A stretch of 64,000 nt of DNA from an uncultured Chloroflexia bacterium (GCA_963828165.1 CAWHDR010000001.1:2496001-2560000), one strand, 5' to 3'; numbered from the stretch's first letter, positions 50,586-58,529 are shown. Notes: generated from the letters alone by a model not told the origin. Made by a program: numbers and translations.

Positions 50586-51379
50586 GCGTCCGGCCCAAGG
50601 CCGCACCCGTGGAGGACCGGCCGCTTCATCCGTGGCGGCGGACGATCCGCTACTGGGCCTCGCGGCTCGTTTCCGGAGCGGTCACCCGAGCCTGGCTGCG
50701 GCTCGAATGCCAGGGCTTCGAACAGCTTCCGGACGGCCCGGCGATCTACTGCTTCAACCACCTGTCCTGGGCGGATCCGTTCGTCCTGATGGCCACGCTC
50801 CCGATGCGTCCGCGCTTGTCGTTCTTCGGTCCGAAGGAGGAGGACATGGGCGTCGGCGGTCGCAACCGGCTCATGCACTGGACCGGGGCGACGATCCCCT
50901 ACAAACCGGGCAAGAACGACCTGCTCGAGGCGACCCGAAAGGTGGGGGCGGTCATCGGTGCCGGTGGGATCGTCGCGATCGCGGGGGAGGGGAGGATCGG
51001 TGCCCTTGAGGCGGCCGTGCTCCCGCTCAACGACGGACCCGCCTATTTCGCCCTGCGGTCGCGCGTGCCGCTCGTCCCGATCGCGATCAACGGGACGAGC
51101 TGGCTGCGGTTCGGCGGCCGCATCCGGGTCCGCGTCGGCCAACCCATCGTGGGAATCGGTCGGCCTGATCGAACGAACGTGGCCGAGATGACGGCTGCTC
51201 TCCAGGCGTCACTCGCGGCCCTGGTCGCCGATGCTCAGCAGCCCGTACGCACCGGCCGGTCCGGGGCATGGCTGTCGGAGCGGTTCAACGAATGGCCCGA
51301 AGGCTCCCGCGAGGCGGCCCTGGCCGCCCAGATCGATGGGGCGATCGAGCCACAGCCGCTGGCCGCTGCGGGCGGCTGA
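50582..51379 (+). CDS. Lysophospholipid acyltransferase (PlsC family)
   Basis: NHLSWAD (HX4D), GEGRI, VPLVPIAING. Confidence 0.85.
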   Translation: MSVRPKAAPVEDRPLHPWRRTIRYWASRLVSGAVTRAWLRLECQGFEQLPDGPAIYCFNHLSWADPFVLMATLPMRPRLSFFGPKEEDMGVGGRNRLMHWTGATIPYKPGKNDLLEATRKVGAVIGAGGIVAIAGEGRIGALEAAVLPLNDGPAYFALRSRVPLVPIAINGTSWLRFGGRIRVRVGQPIVGIGRPDRTNVAEMTAALQASLAALVADAQQPVRTGRSGAWLSERFNEWPEGSREAALAAQIDGAIEPQPLAAAGG

Positions 51380-51429
51380 CCGGGCGTCTCTGGCATACTC
51401 GGCGCGCAGGATCCCCCTCAGGAGCGACC

Positions 51430-51795
51430 GTGGCTGCAACCGGCCTGTCCACCGATTCCACCGAGTACCGAACCCGCCTCAACGAGCAGACCGACCAGCA
51501 GATCGACCTGTGGGCGCAGGAGATGATGCGCGACGTGGCCAAGCGTCGGGGCGTCCTTCGGGTCCTCGATGATCTGCGCCGCGCTGCGCGACTCTCGGAA
51601 CGCGATATCGAACGGGTGTTCGCTTCAGGCGATGGACCGCCGGCGGTGATCGGGCGAGACGCCCAGGGCCGCCAGATGATGCCGGCAGTGGCCCTGTACG
51701 CACTCGTCCCCGGACTGCGCGCGGACACCGCCGACGCCCGGGAGCGTCTCATCGACTACCTGGTCGAGAACTTCCACGAGCTCGTCTACGTCTGA
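51430..51795 (+). CDS. Hypothetical protein
   Basis: AGGAG RBS before GTG; GC3-biased 121-aa ORF. Confidence 0.6.
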   Translation: MAATGLSTDSTEYRTRLNEQTDQQIDLWAQEMMRDVAKRRGVLRVLDDLRRAARLSERDIERVFASGDGPPAVIGRDAQGRQMMPAVALYALVPGLRADTADARERLIDYLVENFHELVYV

Positions 51796-52633: not shown

Positions 52634-52775
52634 GGCACAGGCCCGGCGGAGGCAAGACGAACCCGAACGGGACCTTCGTCCTCCCTAACACCGCCCACCG
52701 GCATTCGTTCTCAAGGATGCGGGGTCAAGACCCTGGGGCCGGATGGCCCGCCCCCGCGAATGGAGGCCCGACATC

Positions 52776-53277
52776 GTGCATCGACACACTCGCCACCTCC
52801 GCGGCCTGCTGGTCGCCCTCGCCGCGCTCGTCCTGACAGCGGGAGCGGTGTTCGCAGCCCGTCCGGCTTCGGTCGAAGCCCCACCGGCGGCTGCCGGGGA
52901 TGGACTGACACGCGCATCCGAGGCGGCGGGCAAGACAGTGCCGGTCCGACCCGAGGCGCCGGCCGTGCCCGAGGCCGACGTGGACGATGACGCGGACGAG
53001 ACCGTCCCCGAGGCCGACGAAGTTGAAGCGGCAGCCGACGAGGCCGCGGGCGAACGCCCCGAGAACCACGGCTGGTTCGTCTCCGAGGCGGCGAAGGCCG
53101 AGACCCCCGACGGCTTCGACAACCACGGCGCCTACGTGTCCGAGATCGCCCGCGGTGACGAGGGCAAGCCGGAGGCGGCCACGGCCGCTCGTGACGGCGG
53201 GATCGGCAAAGGCGGAAGCCGCAAAGGCCCGCAAGGCCGAGCGCGCGCCCAAGGGCGCGAAGGGCGGCAACGACTAG
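52776..53277 (+). CDS. Secreted acidic protein with two NHG motifs; probable +1 frameshift near 53190-53200
   Basis: GGAGG RBS, signal peptide, NHGWFVSEAAK and NHGAYVSEIAR; alternate frame ends AKAEAAK...GGND* just before a hairpin. Confidence 0.6.
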
Positions 53278-53354: not shown

Positions 53355-54398
53355 TCAGTCGCGGGGGTCACCTGTCCGGACGATGGCGATCGCGTTCTCC
53401 AGGCGGAGCTTCGCGATCGTGAGGTACTTCGCGAGGTTGGCCCGGTCGATCTCGGTGATCGAGGCCACGGCATCAGGGGAGCGAAGGACGTCGACCAAGG
53501 CATCGAGTGCCTCGCCCAGGTCCTGCTTGGCGTTGACGAGCGAATCGTCGGTGAGCTCCACGGCCGGCCGGGGTGCCGTCTCCGCGACCGCGGCGTCGTC
53601 ATCGATCTCGAGGTCCACATCGTCGTGGCCAACACCGTTGGTCCCATCGAGCCCGTTGCCATCCGCGCCGATGTCGTCGATGACCCGCACCGGCCGAGAC
53701 CGGCGACCCTCGATCTTGTCGCGGAGCTTGATCAGGGTCAGTTCACCACGAGCGACCTGGTCGGCCAGCCTGCGGCGCTTCTTGGGGTCGTCGACCTTCA
53801 TCAGCTCGTAGGCGTGGGACAGGGTGTCTTTGCGCAAGGACACGAGCTCTCGGATCTCCGGCGGCGCATCGGCGAGCCGGAGCCGGTTCTCGAGGTAGCC
53901 CTTGTCCTTGCCCAGCTTGTCGGCAAGCTTGCGGATGCTGTAGCCGTGTTCCCGGACCATCCGGTCGTACATCGCGGCTTCATCGAGCGGCGAGATGTCC
54001 TCGCGCTGGAGGTTCTCGATGATCGAGATCTCCAGGGCGGTGTCGTCGTCGATCTCCTCGATGAGGGCCGGGATCGTCTCGAGGCCGGCCTGCTTCGAGG
54101 CTCGCCAGCGCCGCTCGCCGGCAACGAGCTGGTAGCGGTTCTGGCCGATGGGTCGGACGAGGATGGGCTGCAGGACGCCGTGCTCGCGGATGGAGGCAGT
54201 CAGCTCGTCGAGCGTCTCCTGGTTGAAGGCGAGTCGCGGCTGCTGCGGGTTGGAGTCGATGCGATCGACCGGAACGATCCGGACGCCGACACTGCGCGTC
54301 GGGGAGTCGTTCGACAGGAGGCTGACGATGGCAGGGGAGAGCTCACGCTCTTCCGACAGGCGACGCGCGGCGGTCGCTCGGAAATCAGGCCGTGCCAA
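53355..54398 (-). CDS. parB: ParB/Spo0J-family partition protein with a divergent HTH
   Basis: [25 protein letters not shown] (CTP-binding), [12 protein letters not shown]. Confidence 0.92.
53826..53841. promoter_or_regulatory. 16-bp palindrome copy 1 (candidate non-canonical parS), inside parB
   Basis: GTCTTTGCGCAAGGAC (15/16), extended by gt...ac. Confidence 0.5.
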
Positions 54399-55155
54399 GT
54401 TCGACCACCTCCCGCGCGAGCTCGCGGTACGTACGCGCGGCGTCGCTGCCCCCGGCATAGGTCGTGATGGGGCGTCCCACCAGCGGTGCCTCGCCGAGCT
54501 TCACGGTGTTACGAATGATGCTGCTGAACACGTGGTGATCGCCAACGACCCGGAGCTCGTCGAGCATGTCCCGAGCGAGATTCGTTCGGCCGTCGTAGAA
54601 CGTTGGCAGCAGTCCGAGGATCTTCAGGTCCCGGTTCAGCTTGAGCCGGATCGCGTTGATGACCTTGACGAGGTTCGTCAGGCCCTTCATCGCGTAGTAC
54701 TGGGTCTGGACCGGGATGATCACGCCGTTTGCAGCGACGAGACCATTCACCGTCAGCAACCCGAGGTTCGGCGGGCAATCGATGAGGACGTAGTCGTAGG
54801 CGTCCGCCTGGCCTTCGATCGCGTCACGCAGGATCTGCTCGCGGCCAAGGGCGGTGAAAAGCTCGCCCTCGGTCGATGCCAGGTCGATGTGCGCGGGCGC
54901 GACGTCGATGCCCGCGCTCTCTGTGGGGCGGATGACTTCGGAAAGGGTCGCTCGTCCATCGGCGAGCACGTCAGCCATCGAGCGTTCGACGGTGTTGAGG
55001 TTGATCCCGAGTCCGGCCGTCAGGTTGGCCTGGGGATCCATATCGATGCAGAGGACCCGGAGGCCCTCCTCAGCGAGGGCGCCCGCGAGGTTGATCGCCG
55101 TGGTGGTCTTGCCCACTCCACCCTTCTGATTGGCGATCGCGATCACATTGGTCAC
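54385..55155 (-). CDS. parA: ParA/Soj-family ATPase
   Basis: [30 protein letters not shown]. Confidence 0.95.
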
Positions 55156-55259
55156 CAGGGCATCACCTCGAATCATCGGCCGGGCTCGCGCGCTCTGCGG
55201 GCGGTTGGGGCGGGGATGCCGTCATGCTACTCCAGCCCGCGCCCCAGCGAACACGCTGG

Positions 55260-55302
55260 TTATCCACACGGATCGCGAGTTGTTCACCATTTCGGTGGAT
55301 AA
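55260..55302. promoter_or_regulatory. DnaA-box cluster between parA and pccB
   Basis: Perfect TTATCCACA at 55260; inverted 8/9 box ggtggataa at 55294; weak ttgttcacc at 55280. Confidence 0.65.
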
Positions 55303-55325
55303 GTAGGACCGTATGATGGGCCACT

Positions 55326-55341
55326 GTCCGTGCACAAAGAC
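55326..55341. promoter_or_regulatory. 16-bp palindrome copy 2 (degenerate), intergenic upstream of parA
   Basis: GTCCGTGCACAAAGAC (13/16). Confidence 0.35.
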
Positions 55342-55367
55342 GGCCCACCGCAACGGGAGGATCGGCA

Positions 55368-56913
55368 TTGCCGACGAATGAGGAGCGAGCCGCACGCCTC
55401 GATGCGATGCGAGCGGAGTCGATGCTCGGTGGCGGACAGGAGCGCATCGACCAGCAACATGAGCGCGGAAAGCTCACCGCGCGAGAGCGGTTGGAGCTGC
55501 TGCTCGACGCCGGATCGTTCGTGGAGTTCGACGCATTCGTCACGAATCGCAACCCCGACGCCGAGACCGCGTTCCTCGGGGACGGCGTGGTCACCGGCCA
55601 CGGCAAGATCGACGGGCGGCTCGTCTTCGTGTTCAGCCAGGACTTCACGGTCTTCGGCGGATCGTTGTCCGAGGCGTACGCGGAAAAGATCTGCAAGGTG
55701 ATGGACCTTGCGATGAAGGTCGGAGCACCGATCATCGGGCTCAACGACTCGGGAGGCGCCCGCATCCAGGAGGGCGTCGTGTCGCTCGGTGGGTACGCCG
55801 ACATCTTCCTGCGAAACACGTTGGCCTCGGGTGTCGTACCGCAGTTGTCGCTGGTGATGGGCCCGTGTGCCGGCGGGGCGGTGTACTCCCCGGCGATCAC
55901 CGACTTCACGATCATGGTCGAGGGCACGAGCTACATGTTCGTCACCGGGCCGAACGTCGTGAAGGCCGTCACCCACGAGGACGTCGACGCGGAGACGCTT
56001 GGTGGGGCGACGACCCACACGACGCGCAGCGGGGTTGCGCACATCGCGGCCCACGACGAAGCGGAGGCGCTCGGCTTCGCGCGGCGGATCCTCGGGCACC
56101 TGCCACAGAACAATCTCGACGACGCGCCGCGGGGATCGACGTCGGATCCGATCGATCGGCAGGACGCCGCGCTGGATCGGATCGTCCCGGACGACCCGAG
56201 CAAGCCATACGACATGCATCAGGTCATCGAGCTCGTCGTCGACGACGGCGCATATCCTCGAGATCCAGCCGGGCTGGGCGCCGAACATCCTGACGGGCTT
56301 CGCGCGACTCGGCGGGCGCAGCGTCGGCATCGTCGCGCAGCAGCCAGCGGTCCTTGCCGGCGCGCTGGACATCGACGCCTCGACGAAGGCGGCACGGTTC
56401 GTCCGGACCTGCGACTGCTTCAACGTGCCGATCATCACCTTGGTCGACGTGCCGGGTTTCATGCCGGGCGTCGGTCAGGAACACGGCGGGATCATCCGTC
56501 ACGGAGCCAAGCTGCTGTACGCCTACTGCGAGGCGACCGTCCCCAAGCTGACGGTGATCACGCGCAAGGCCTACGGCGGCGCGTACGACGTCATGTCCAG
56601 CAAACATGTTCGCGGCGACATCAACCTGGCGTGGCCCACTGCGGAGATCGCCGTGATGGGCGCAGAGGGCGCGGTCAACATCCTCCACCGCGACACGATC
56701 GCGGCCGCCGCGGACCCGGCTGCCGAGCGCGCCAGGCTCGTTGCCGACTACGAGGAGCGTTTCGCCAACCCATATGCCGCCGCGGCTCGCGGCTACGTCG
56801 ATGACGTCATCAGGCCGTCGGAGACTCGGCCACGGCTCATCGCCGCGCTGGAGATGCTGGCCGACAAGCGCGACACGAATCCACCGAAGAAGCACGGCAA
56901 CATCCCGCTGTGA
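55368..56913 (+). CDS. pccB: Acyl-CoA (propionyl-CoA) carboxylase carboxyltransferase subunit; +1 frameshift near 56253
   Basis: [24 protein letters not shown], then [25 protein letters not shown]. Confidence 0.9.
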
Positions 56914-58529
56914 CCGCGCCTTCGCGGACGGTGGGGGAGGCCGCGTCTTTGCGCAAAGACGGAGCCCGACCGTTTGTGCGGATCCTCGTCGCGAACCGGG
57001 GAGAGATCGCCCTTCGCATCATTCGCACCTGTCGCGATCTCGGCATAGAGACCGTCGCGGTTTTCTCGGACGCTGATTCCCAAGCGGCTCACGTCGGGGC
57101 GGCCGACTCGGCCGTGCGCCTGGGCCCGGCGCCGGCGACGGAGAGCTACCTTCGCGCCGACGCGATCGTCGAGGCCGCCCTCTCGACGGGTGCCGAGGCG
57201 ATCCACCCCGGCTACGGGTTCTTGTCGGAACGCGCGGCGTTCGCGCGGGCGGTGATCGACGCCGGTCTGACGTTCATCGGACCGGCGCCCGACGCGATCG
57301 ATGCCCTCGGGGACAAGCTGACGGCACGCCGGACGGCGAAGGATGCCGGCGTCCCGGTGGTGCCGGGGACGTACGAGGCCGCGGCTGTCGATCGACCCGA
57401 CGAGGCGGCAGCTGTCGTCGCGGCGGCCGAGGACGTCGGCTTTCCGTTGCTCGTGAAAGCCTCGGCGGGCGGCGGGGGCCGGGGCATGCGACGCGTCACG
57501 AGAGCGGCGGATCTGCCAGCCGCGTTGGCGGCGGGGGCGGCGGAGGCGCTTGCGGCATTCGGCGATGGCGCGGTCTACCTCGAGCGGGAGGTACGCCCGG
57601 CTCGCCATATCGAGGTGCAACTGCTCGGCGACGCGGACGGCACGATCGTGGCCCTCGGGGAGCGCGATTGCTCGATCCAGCGCCGACACCAGAAGCTCGT
57701 GGAGGAATCACCGGCGCCCGGACTGTCACCAGACGAACGAGCCGAGCTGCACGATCTCGCCATCCGCGCTGCGGTCGCGGCGAAGCTCCACAACGCCGCG
57801 ACGGCCGAGTTCCTCTTCGACACCGACCGGCGGTTCTGGTTCCTGGAGGTCAACGCGCGCCTCCAGGTCGAGCACGGGGTGACCGAGCTCGTGACGGACC
57901 TCGACCTTGTCGCAGAACAGCTGTGGATCGCGGCGGGGGCACCGTTGTCGGAGGCGGTCCTGACCGCGGCGGCGAATGCGCTGACCCCGACCCGCCACGC
58001 CATCGAGGTCCGGCTGGCCGCCGAGGATCCGGCCCGCGAATTCGCACCGTCGCCGGGACGCGTGGGGGAGTGGCGGATGCCATCGGGTCCCGGGGTTCGC
58101 GTGGACACGGCGCTCCGTGCGGGGGAGCGCGTGCCGCCCGACTACGATCCGTTGATCGCCAAGATCATGACGGTCGCCCCCGACCGGGGAAGCGCCATCG
58201 ACCGGATGCGGAGGGCGCTGGACGAAGTCGCCGTGACCGGCATCCAGACGACCCTACCATTCGATCGCGCGCTCATGCGCGACCGGGCCTTTGCCGCGGG
58301 CGACCTATCGACGGGCTGGGTGGAGGCGCGCTGGGACGGCGAGACGCGCCGGTCCGAAGCGTTGACACGGGCTGCCCGGGCCGCGGCAGGCGCCGCCGAT
58401 GCGGTGCTCGTCGAAGGTGCCAGGTCCGCCGCGCAAGCGGAGAAGGACCCGTCTTTGCGCAAAGACGGCAGCCCGTCGGCCTGGCGGGACGCTGGCCGCC
58501 AGGCCGCGGCCGATCGCTGGCCTCGATGA
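56910..58529 (+). CDS. accC: Biotin carboxylase subunit
   Basis: [52 protein letters not shown]. Confidence 0.92.
56945..56960. promoter_or_regulatory. 16-bp palindrome copy 3 (perfect), in the accC 5' extension
   Basis: cGTCTTTGCGCAAAGACg. Confidence 0.55.
58451..58466. promoter_or_regulatory. 16-bp palindrome copy 4 (perfect, 20 bp with flanks), in the accC 3' extension
   Basis: ccGTCTTTGCGCAAAGACgg. Confidence 0.55.

Follow-up and report, generated by a model that had tools for sequence, protein, structure and literature searches.

A 64,000-nucleotide stretch from an uncultured Chloroflexia bacterium (GCA_963828165.1, CAWHDR010000001.1:2496001-2560000), at its full length called the window, carries a parB and a parA gene (here parB2 and parA2), followed by a pccB-like gene with a frameshift, accC, and genes for a biotin carrier and a methylmalonyl-CoA mutase, with four copies of one palindrome (S1 to S4) among them. 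Coordinates are counted from the first letter of the stretch. In the comparisons below, f1-f4 and f83 are family codes, g1, g4 and g23 genus codes, G-numbers genomes and L-numbers loci. The genes and sites on which the argument turns are as follows.

53355..54398, minus strand: parB2, 347 aa, with the Pfam domains ParB_N and HTH_ParB and alignments to Noc, ParB and Spo0J structures
54385..55176, minus strand: parA2, a deviant Walker A ATPase (Pfam AAA_31/CbiA; best PDB matches Soj/ParA)
53825..53842, no strand: S1, inside the parB2 coding sequence, encoding VSLRKDT; present in 80/80 loci
55325..55342, no strand: S2, between parA2 and pccB, just 3' of a -10-like hexamer; 70/72 loci
56944..56961, no strand: S3, at the pccB/accC junction; 93/93 loci, in all three accC frames
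58450..58467, no strand: S4, in a C-terminal insertion of accC; 19/58 loci
55368..56913, plus strand: pccB-like carboxyltransferase, between S2 and S3, whose two open reading frames are consecutive halves of PF01039 with a frameshift near 56250
56910..58529, plus strand: accC-like biotin carboxylase, which hosts S3 and S4

A sequence-only reading of the window had reported a 16-bp palindrome at 53826 (one mismatch), 55326 (three mismatches), 56945 and 58451 (both perfect), and all four copies are where it placed them. The palindrome stood but its length did not: the unit is 18 bp (consensus YGTCYKTGCGCAMRGACR), the preceding base being C or T and the following base A or G in every site. Among 100 shuffled sequences the mean was 0.14 copies and the maximum two, never four. 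Scanning the 3.31-Mb genome returned nine matches with at most three mismatches; all three matches with at most two mismatches are inside the window, and these three plus one three-mismatch copy are the only genomic copies that score as sites, which extends the earlier impression of no further good copy from the window to the whole genome. With a weight matrix built from 241 distinct related sites, orthologous ones included, the four window sites scored 25.9-34.9 bits and the next-best place in the genome 12.7 bits; the window scores are partly circular because of the orthologous training sites, the gap to the remaining genome is not.

The counts listed for S1, S2 and S4 refer to 80 related loci, among which S3 stands at 65/65 and the 58 loci scored for S4 are those long enough to contain it. 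Loci of family f3 have S2 and S3 in 16/16 and S1 in 14/16. Spacings of 1500, 1619 and 1506 bp had been read from the window; they recur in relatives (1490-1625, 1590-1649 and 1475-1554 bp) but are not constant in other genera, where 1.8 and 2.7 kb are found, and the spacing tracks gene boundaries. Similarly, the placing of both perfect copies in extensions of accC holds for the window, whereas in many relatives the 56945 site is intergenic or in another frame, and the 58451 copy, although in the C-terminal extension as described, is lineage-restricted. In g4 the pccB-accC-bccp genes are gone from the locus, yet S1 and S2 are kept; an accC orthologue was not found in 4/4 genomes of this genus.

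Rare codons had suggested that selection acts on the DNA of the sites. Genome-wide, TCT makes up 2.0% of Ser, TTG 4.9% of Leu and AAA 5.8% of Lys codons in genes called by a custom script, which bears out the rarity. At S1, Leu188 of parB2 is TTG in 98% and Lys190 is AAA in 71% of 96 f1 loci, whereas in the gene's other conserved Leu and Lys columns TTG does not exceed 15% and AAA 11%, with the reservation that these loci are kin and the counts not independent. S3 falls in three accC frames (59, 26 and 7 loci, two with an in-frame stop), and the DNA motif is kept through changes of amino acid and of reading frame. Departures from the consensus among 236 sites comprise 174 mismatches, 45 G-U pairs and one compensatory pair; a single symmetric non-consensus site was observed versus 21 expected from independent halves, and one half nearly always remains perfect. 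Taken together, the rare codons in parB2, the three accC frames and the lack of RNA-type covariation show, by comparison of related loci, that the motif is selected as DNA, and the earlier suggestion to this effect is upheld.

The protein encoded beside the sites has the parts of a ParB. The start of parB2 is a TTG inferred from conservation, overlapping the parA2 stop, in an open frame that reaches 54458. Its layout is an N-terminal helical peptide, a CTPase (cytidine triphosphatase) domain, a helix-turn-helix (HTH), a linker and an all-helical C-terminal domain (model confidence as predicted local distance difference test, pLDDT, 84), and the model, which shows helices at the N-terminus, a ParB core and a helical hairpin at the C-terminus, finds ParB and Noc as fold matches. 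The CTP motifs GERRWRA and ENLQRE are intact, GERR and ENLQRED being invariant in 96 sequences. Unlike chromosomal ParB, it has no LGRGL-type N-terminal peptide. At the specificity positions R173, T179, A184 and G201 of Caulobacter ParB, which are Q, K, K and R in Noc (PMC7383237), ParB2 has K-R-D-S, thus departing from the canonical R-T-A-G with R173 and G201 replaced by K and S; its recognition helix does not vary within the class. When the C-terminal domain was modelled as a homodimer, the score was 0.55 versus 0.02 for the best control, a mark that 20/30 solved pairs and 1/23 single chains reach; runs agree in at least 87% of contacts with pLDDT of at least 73, and the model supports a homodimer. 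ParA2, encoded directly upstream of parB2, has an intact KGGVGKT motif, forms its own clade in the ParA tree and is 59-86% identical across four families.

ParB2 is one of two ParBs. The source genome has two parB genes, as have 58/60 related genomes, and in the single-contig genomes G087, G095, G123 and G127 both systems are on one chromosome. A canonical parABS is located at G000:C1:1272860-1274388, 35 kb from dnaA, with a single parS just upstream of parA1; ParB1 has the canonical helix, and canonical parS precedes parAB1 in 7/7 loci read. No canonical parS had been found by eye, but the genome has one 1.28 Mb away, and the palindrome is not the main centromere, the canonical parABS sitting 35 kb from dnaA. 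ParB2 itself occurs in 45/45 genomes of the class Limnocylindria. With at most one mismatch, the motif was found in 105/108 f1 and 0/42 f2 genomes, the reversed control giving 0, so that in f1 the proposed check on relatives found it at orthologous loci and together with the ParB2 family. The strict 18-mer pattern occurs in 23/23 f1, 15/16 f3, 0/4 f2 and 0/2 f4 genomes, and outside the class in 3/355 other Chloroflexota genomes with one match each. A very relaxed class-wide pattern gave many chance-like matches and served only to choose f4 loci; the three unpublished genomes among its matches (G585, G606 and G612) underlie none of the conclusions. Viral sequences contain 14 motif matches with no parB nearby, about the chance level as estimated. 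Two viral contigs (L610:4050-4295 and L611:5002-5247) each hold two perfect copies 230 bp apart; no parB was detected in these loci around the paired copies.

Relatives of ParB2 outside the class were sparse. The ParB2 search gave weaker matches in 12/355 other Chloroflexota, 11 with the canonical helix and one a ParB2 relative, and another Chloroflexota class had a ParB2 relative in 2/201 genomes. On a contig of G763 with a coupling protein and a relaxase, three perfect copies of GTTTTTGCGCAAAAAC, differing from the ParB2 motif by one base per half, are at parB, one of them inside it, and no further copies were found elsewhere within one mismatch. This conjugative element (L348/L359, G763:C80) combines parAB and the three perfect palindromes with an antirepressor-like and a Cas6-like gene. 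In G174, one related palindrome is inside parB, on a 4-kb contig, and is unique in the genome; a first candidate, with one exact copy plus scattered two-mismatch matches, was dropped in its favour. The best plasmid match to the ParB2 DNA-binding domain is on the Chlorohelix plasmid NZ_CP128402.1, where the helix reads GKDKSYIENR (GKDK.Y.ENR shared) and two perfect copies of TGTCTGTATATACAGACA, fitting the relaxed ParB2 consensus, lie 37 and 121 bp downstream of parB. Three outside relatives thus carry nearly the same palindrome within or next to their own parB, which ties the motif to the protein. The ParB of a second Chlorohelix plasmid has a different helix and no palindrome of the ParB2 type within 12 kb; about 800 bp downstream of its parAB (L361:7386-7470), inside another gene, are a perfect and a near-perfect related palindrome. 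Among 57 distant proteins, one of them labelled Abditibacteriaceae, SLRKD stands at the S1 position in 4 and xxRPD in most, and several repeat SLRKD, SGRPDT, DLRKS or SYFQKY in their linkers. Judged from protein sequence, such repeats are probably parS arrays within the gene. In P0243, P0246, P0224, P0261, P0241 and P0204 a short linker peptide is repeated 2-8 times. A homologous-protein search with ParB2 returned close orthologues only, and metagenome and viral data, scanned with alignments of the distant relatives, yielded 9 loci of the Limnocylindria type besides generic ParBs, but no new outside member with DNA available. A quick ParB tree places ParB2 as one clade (98) among these relatives, and a branch at 95 separates ParB2 and the relatives from ParB1 and 30 generic ParBs. 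The family is known from plasmids and conjugative elements, and the system was probably borrowed from a plasmid.

We then considered where on the chromosome the system lies. As GC skew alone is too weak to place origin and terminus, we used codon-site skew, gene orientation, octamers and a dif-like site, which we take to be dif from its consensus, single copy and antipodal position. This site, at C1:2,889,011 (49.9% of the genome from dnaA), was found in 40/41 f1 and 2/2 f2 genomes; its distance from dnaA, determined in 10 genomes, is 47.6-54.4% of the genome. The distance from parAB2 to dnaA is 36.7-42.5% of the genome (n = 10) and that to dif 287-466 kb (median 353 kb, n = 34 genomes). parAB2 is flanked by dnaG-rpoD and by the dcw cluster (mraZ at 19 kb, ftsZ at 35 kb), and loci of f2, f3 and f4 show this linkage as well. 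The polarity of gene orientation, four-fold-site skew and skewed octamers is unbroken at parAB2 and reverses near dnaA and near dif. Hence, of the expectation that the sites cluster near parAB and oriC, the first half holds and the second does not, since they lie on the terminus side, about 40% of the chromosome from dnaA. Gene-strand bias is strong on the parAB2 replichore and weak on the other. Most tRNA clusters (G000:C1:2300000-2800000) are more than 1 Mb away from dnaA, in the neighbourhood of parAB2 and the dcw cluster, and by the tRNA pattern the rRNA and ribosomal-protein regions are likewise more than 1 Mb from dnaA, the rRNA assignment being indirect.

Sites away from parAB2 share this location. 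In f4 they lie between convergent genes, where an addA-like gene has its 3' end; in 5 near-complete f1 genomes this addA-like gene is 204-287 kb past dif. Another dispersed site is near topA, itself 167-231 kb beyond dif in 4 f1 genomes. In three g23 genomes the dispersed sites are 1.6, 2.7 and 2.5 kb from dif. Over 30 loci of f4, f83 and g23, 22 are in the terminus zone, 1 is elsewhere and 7 are unmapped. The zone, which holds 21% of genes, also contains 59/66 relaxed matches in f2, including 33/34 intergenic ones. In 22/30 f2 loci, a variant altered in both halves is located 954-967 bp from dif; it reads TTG in 25/28 cases where the pattern permitted CTG, the neighbouring codons varying freely. 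These comparisons show that the motif travels with the ParB2 family and lies terminus-side.

Two further elements flank S2, and the genes around parAB2 were surveyed as well.

55312..55317, plus strand: -10-like hexamer, read from the sequence, facing pccB, 8 bases before S2
55260..55302: convergent pair of DnaA-box-like 9-mers upstream of parA2 (55260-55268 on the plus strand, 55294-55302 on the minus strand)

A similar hexamer stands 6-9 bases before S2 in 62/96 loci, and a promoter scan found no full sigma-70 promoter. The 9-mers match what we take to be the DnaA box consensus; two matches in the window are not above chance, and at the 96 orthologous loci there are two boxes in 76, one in 18 and four in 2. 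Their sequence and place upstream of parA2 suggest cell-cycle control. Similar pairs occur at C1 1.134, 1.734 and 2.017 Mb, and none was found at dnaA in the source genome. The split of the pccB-like gene is probably an assembly error, since close relatives are in frame and similar breaks occur in many long-read assemblies. Directly downstream of parB2, 52743-53277 encodes an acidic, signal-peptide-like protein with two NHG motifs and no Pfam family, patchy among relatives. At 51268-51795 a conserved protein, for which neither a Pfam family nor an atlas match was found, is convergent with parB2 in f1, f2 and f3 loci and not in two f4 loci. Sequencing runs contained at most 12% of the sequence words.

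Among known relatives, KorB (RK2) and Noc are alike in having a ParB fold with altered DNA specificity beside a canonical system. KorB, too, is encoded with a ParA-family ATPase. Noc is otherwise unlike: ParB2 scores below the Noc cut-off of the curated model (186.8 vs 315 bits), has K-R-D-S rather than Q-K-K-R and a cognate ParA rather than the ParA-less state, and shows no set of many chromosome-wide sites. In proteobacteria, positioning the terminus is the job of MatP or ZapT. The sites of MatP (matS) and of ZapT are sequence-specific and confined to a terminus region of several hundred kb (PMC7188993), and our sites are similarly confined, at few independent positions; unlike MatP, ParB2 is predicted to be a CTPase clamp with a ParA partner, has 2-6 sites mostly on one side of dif and is unrelated, Pfam, NCBIfam, PDB and fold searches giving only ParB-family matches. 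With chromosomal ParABS (Soj/Spo0J, Caulobacter ParAB-parS) the system shares a parA-parB operon, a GERRxRA CTPase domain, an HTH, a dimerising C-terminal domain, modelled in ParB2, and few palindromic sites near parAB (PMC7333895); it differs in its 18-bp site, its terminus-side position (10/10 genomes), its all-helical C-terminal domain and its coexistence with a canonical system in the 58/60 genomes. By sequence, parAB2 would be classed as a type I HTH-ParB system, with the Walker A gene upstream, CTP motifs and HTH, and, on comparative evidence, palindromes near parAB; it would not be classed as a canonical origin ParABS or as Noc. Plasmid and secondary-replicon ParABS also have private, orthogonal palindromes in few copies around parAB (PMC5450999, PMC7022226). 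The parS of Burkholderia cenocepacia chromosome II, gTTTATGCGCATAAAc, matches the ParB2 motif at 12/16 positions (PMC7022226), a likeness that may be convergent, and the single replicon SCP1 of Streptomyces carries two ParABS (ParB1/ParB2), each with its own sites (10.64898/2025.12.10.693275). In Limnocylindria, unlike these, both systems are on one primary chromosome and vertically kept across the class. Reviews describe chromosomal parS as origin-proximal (PMC7333895), the excerpted text of a ParB-fold survey (PMC12704722) does not mention Chloroflexi, and searches of open-access text found no report of the motif or of a terminus-side ParABS, though subscription papers or supplements could contain one.

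Therefore, we regard the palindrome as very probably the binding site of the adjacent ParB2, as the sequence-only reading had proposed, a prediction well supported by comparison, through co-occurrence, DNA-level selection and the related palindromes beside related plasmid ParBs. Because ParB2 has each part of the family mechanism and a terminus-side position, we read parAB2 with the palindrome, then parS2, as a second partition module, orthogonal to the origin ParABS, that would position or segregate the terminus side, with a probability of about 0.6. Members of the family bind their site as dimers, close on CTP and slide, and their N-terminal peptide stimulates ParA (PMC7333895). By analogy, ParB2 dimers would load at parS2, clamp and slide, so that the 2-6 sites would coat a patch of 10-20 kb, and the ParB2 N-terminal peptide would stimulate ParA2. 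The module would have become fixed at its terminus-side position in an ancestor shared by all Limnocylindria. Least certain are the last steps, in which the complex would position or segregate the late-replicating arm and terminus region, with timing possibly set through the DnaA boxes at the parA2 promoter. With a site inside its own gene, site and reader would be inherited as one sequence. A stronger version, which we hold only tentatively and at slightly less than even odds, is that a domesticated plasmid ParABS serves as a terminus-side centromere that actively segregates or positions the terminus, perhaps coupled to the division site.

Several observations weigh against a terminus-side partition module. 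Strict sites were not found in f2 and f4 (f2 0/42 with at most one mismatch) although the recognition helix is unchanged there; 11/38 f4 genomes gave no relaxed match, and the relaxed patterns are noisy in f2, with 66 matches versus 27 control matches in one comparison and control matches in 21/42 genomes in another. Of the 59 terminus-zone matches in f2, 26 are coding; they recur at two places and could be due to protein conservation there. The variant next to dif also lies inside an open reading frame. In most f1 genomes all sites lie some 350 kb from dif and none within about 10 kb (15/15 others checked), so their constant distance may be plain synteny, and since the genomes are related to one another, the dispersed sites amount to only about twelve independent positions. 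The dif pattern was not found in 7 f3 genomes and 1 f4 genome. The ParA tree does not group ParA2 with plasmid ParAs, and parA2 is absent from the locus in 4/12 f2 genomes examined, with parB2 kept. In those 4, with parA2 sought at the locus, the ParB2 N-terminal helix is replaced, while the 8 having parA2 keep it, a pattern that for its part counts in favour of the module; the replaced N-terminus and missing parA2 are probably one loss event, marking a sub-lineage of the streamlined family (L114-L117). Finally, S2 occupies an operator-like position.

This last point leads to the most serious competitor, which we nevertheless consider unlikely: ParB2 as a KorB-like sliding-clamp repressor of the divergent parAB2 and pccB-accC-bccp-mcm promoters, the flanking sites being loading points. 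The spacing of S2 from the -10-like hexamer, its persistence upstream of mcm where pccB-accC is gone, the survival of parB2 without adjacent parA2 in part of f2, and the reach of KorB to promoters up to 1.5 kb away (PMC11790492), which equals the spacing of the sites, all fit such a repressor. Against it stand the f4 sites between convergent genes away from carboxylase genes, G448 with its single site in the whole genome, dispersed sites beside unrelated genes (rbfA, gpsA, trpD, topA, GNAT) with chromosomal position in common, and the retention of ParA2 across four families. The possibility raised earlier, that the motif sits mainly at promoters of an unrelated regulon, holds in part, as S2 has a promoter-like setting and may have a regulatory role; the convergent-intergenic and in-gene sites do not fit it. 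Partition and repressor roles of ParB2 could coexist.

If the motif were instead an operator of another transcription factor of the propionyl-CoA/methylmalonyl-CoA pathway, with parB2 an incidental neighbour, three of four sites in or at the pccB-accC operon, the scarcity of strict sites in f2 and f4 despite an unchanged helix, and the conserved gene without family assignment next to parB2 would be explained; near-identical palindromes at parB on a plasmid and a conjugative element with no carboxylase operon nearby, S1 inside parB2 at every one of the 80 loci and the absence of the motif from 352/355 other Chloroflexota make this improbable. Equally far-fetched is a relic or active origin of an integrated plasmid or secondary chromosome, whose DnaA boxes, parAB and parS arrived together and serve replication: the conserved DnaA-box pair beside parA2, with none found at dnaA in the source genome, and the grouping of ParB2 with mobile-element ParBs would suit it, but strand polarity runs unchanged through parAB2, dif keeps its antipodal position and the neighbours are core genes (dnaG, rpoD, the dcw cluster). 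RNA hairpins at gene junctions, or by-products of a conserved peptide, might be suspected as sites often follow stop codons or mark transcript 5' ends and most coding copies read SLRKD; the covariation counts, the passage of the motif through three reading frames and amino-acid changes, and codon use largely led us to reject this, and we give it hardly any weight.

It has been stated as an open question how bacteria other than enterics and Caulobacter organise the terminus (PMC7188993), and a ParABS kept terminus-side through a whole class, even in streamlined genomes of 1.1 Mb, would be a new answer to it. If so, plasmid machinery would have been turned into a core part of the cell cycle. Whatever its function, ParB2 and its site are predicted to be an orthogonal ParB-parS pair whose specificity residues are new. 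Helix-site pairs across the ParB2 family would represent a natural recognition code beyond parS and the Noc-binding sites (NBS), and the natural ParB2-site variants a resource for mapping how ParBs recognise DNA and for DNA-labelling tools.

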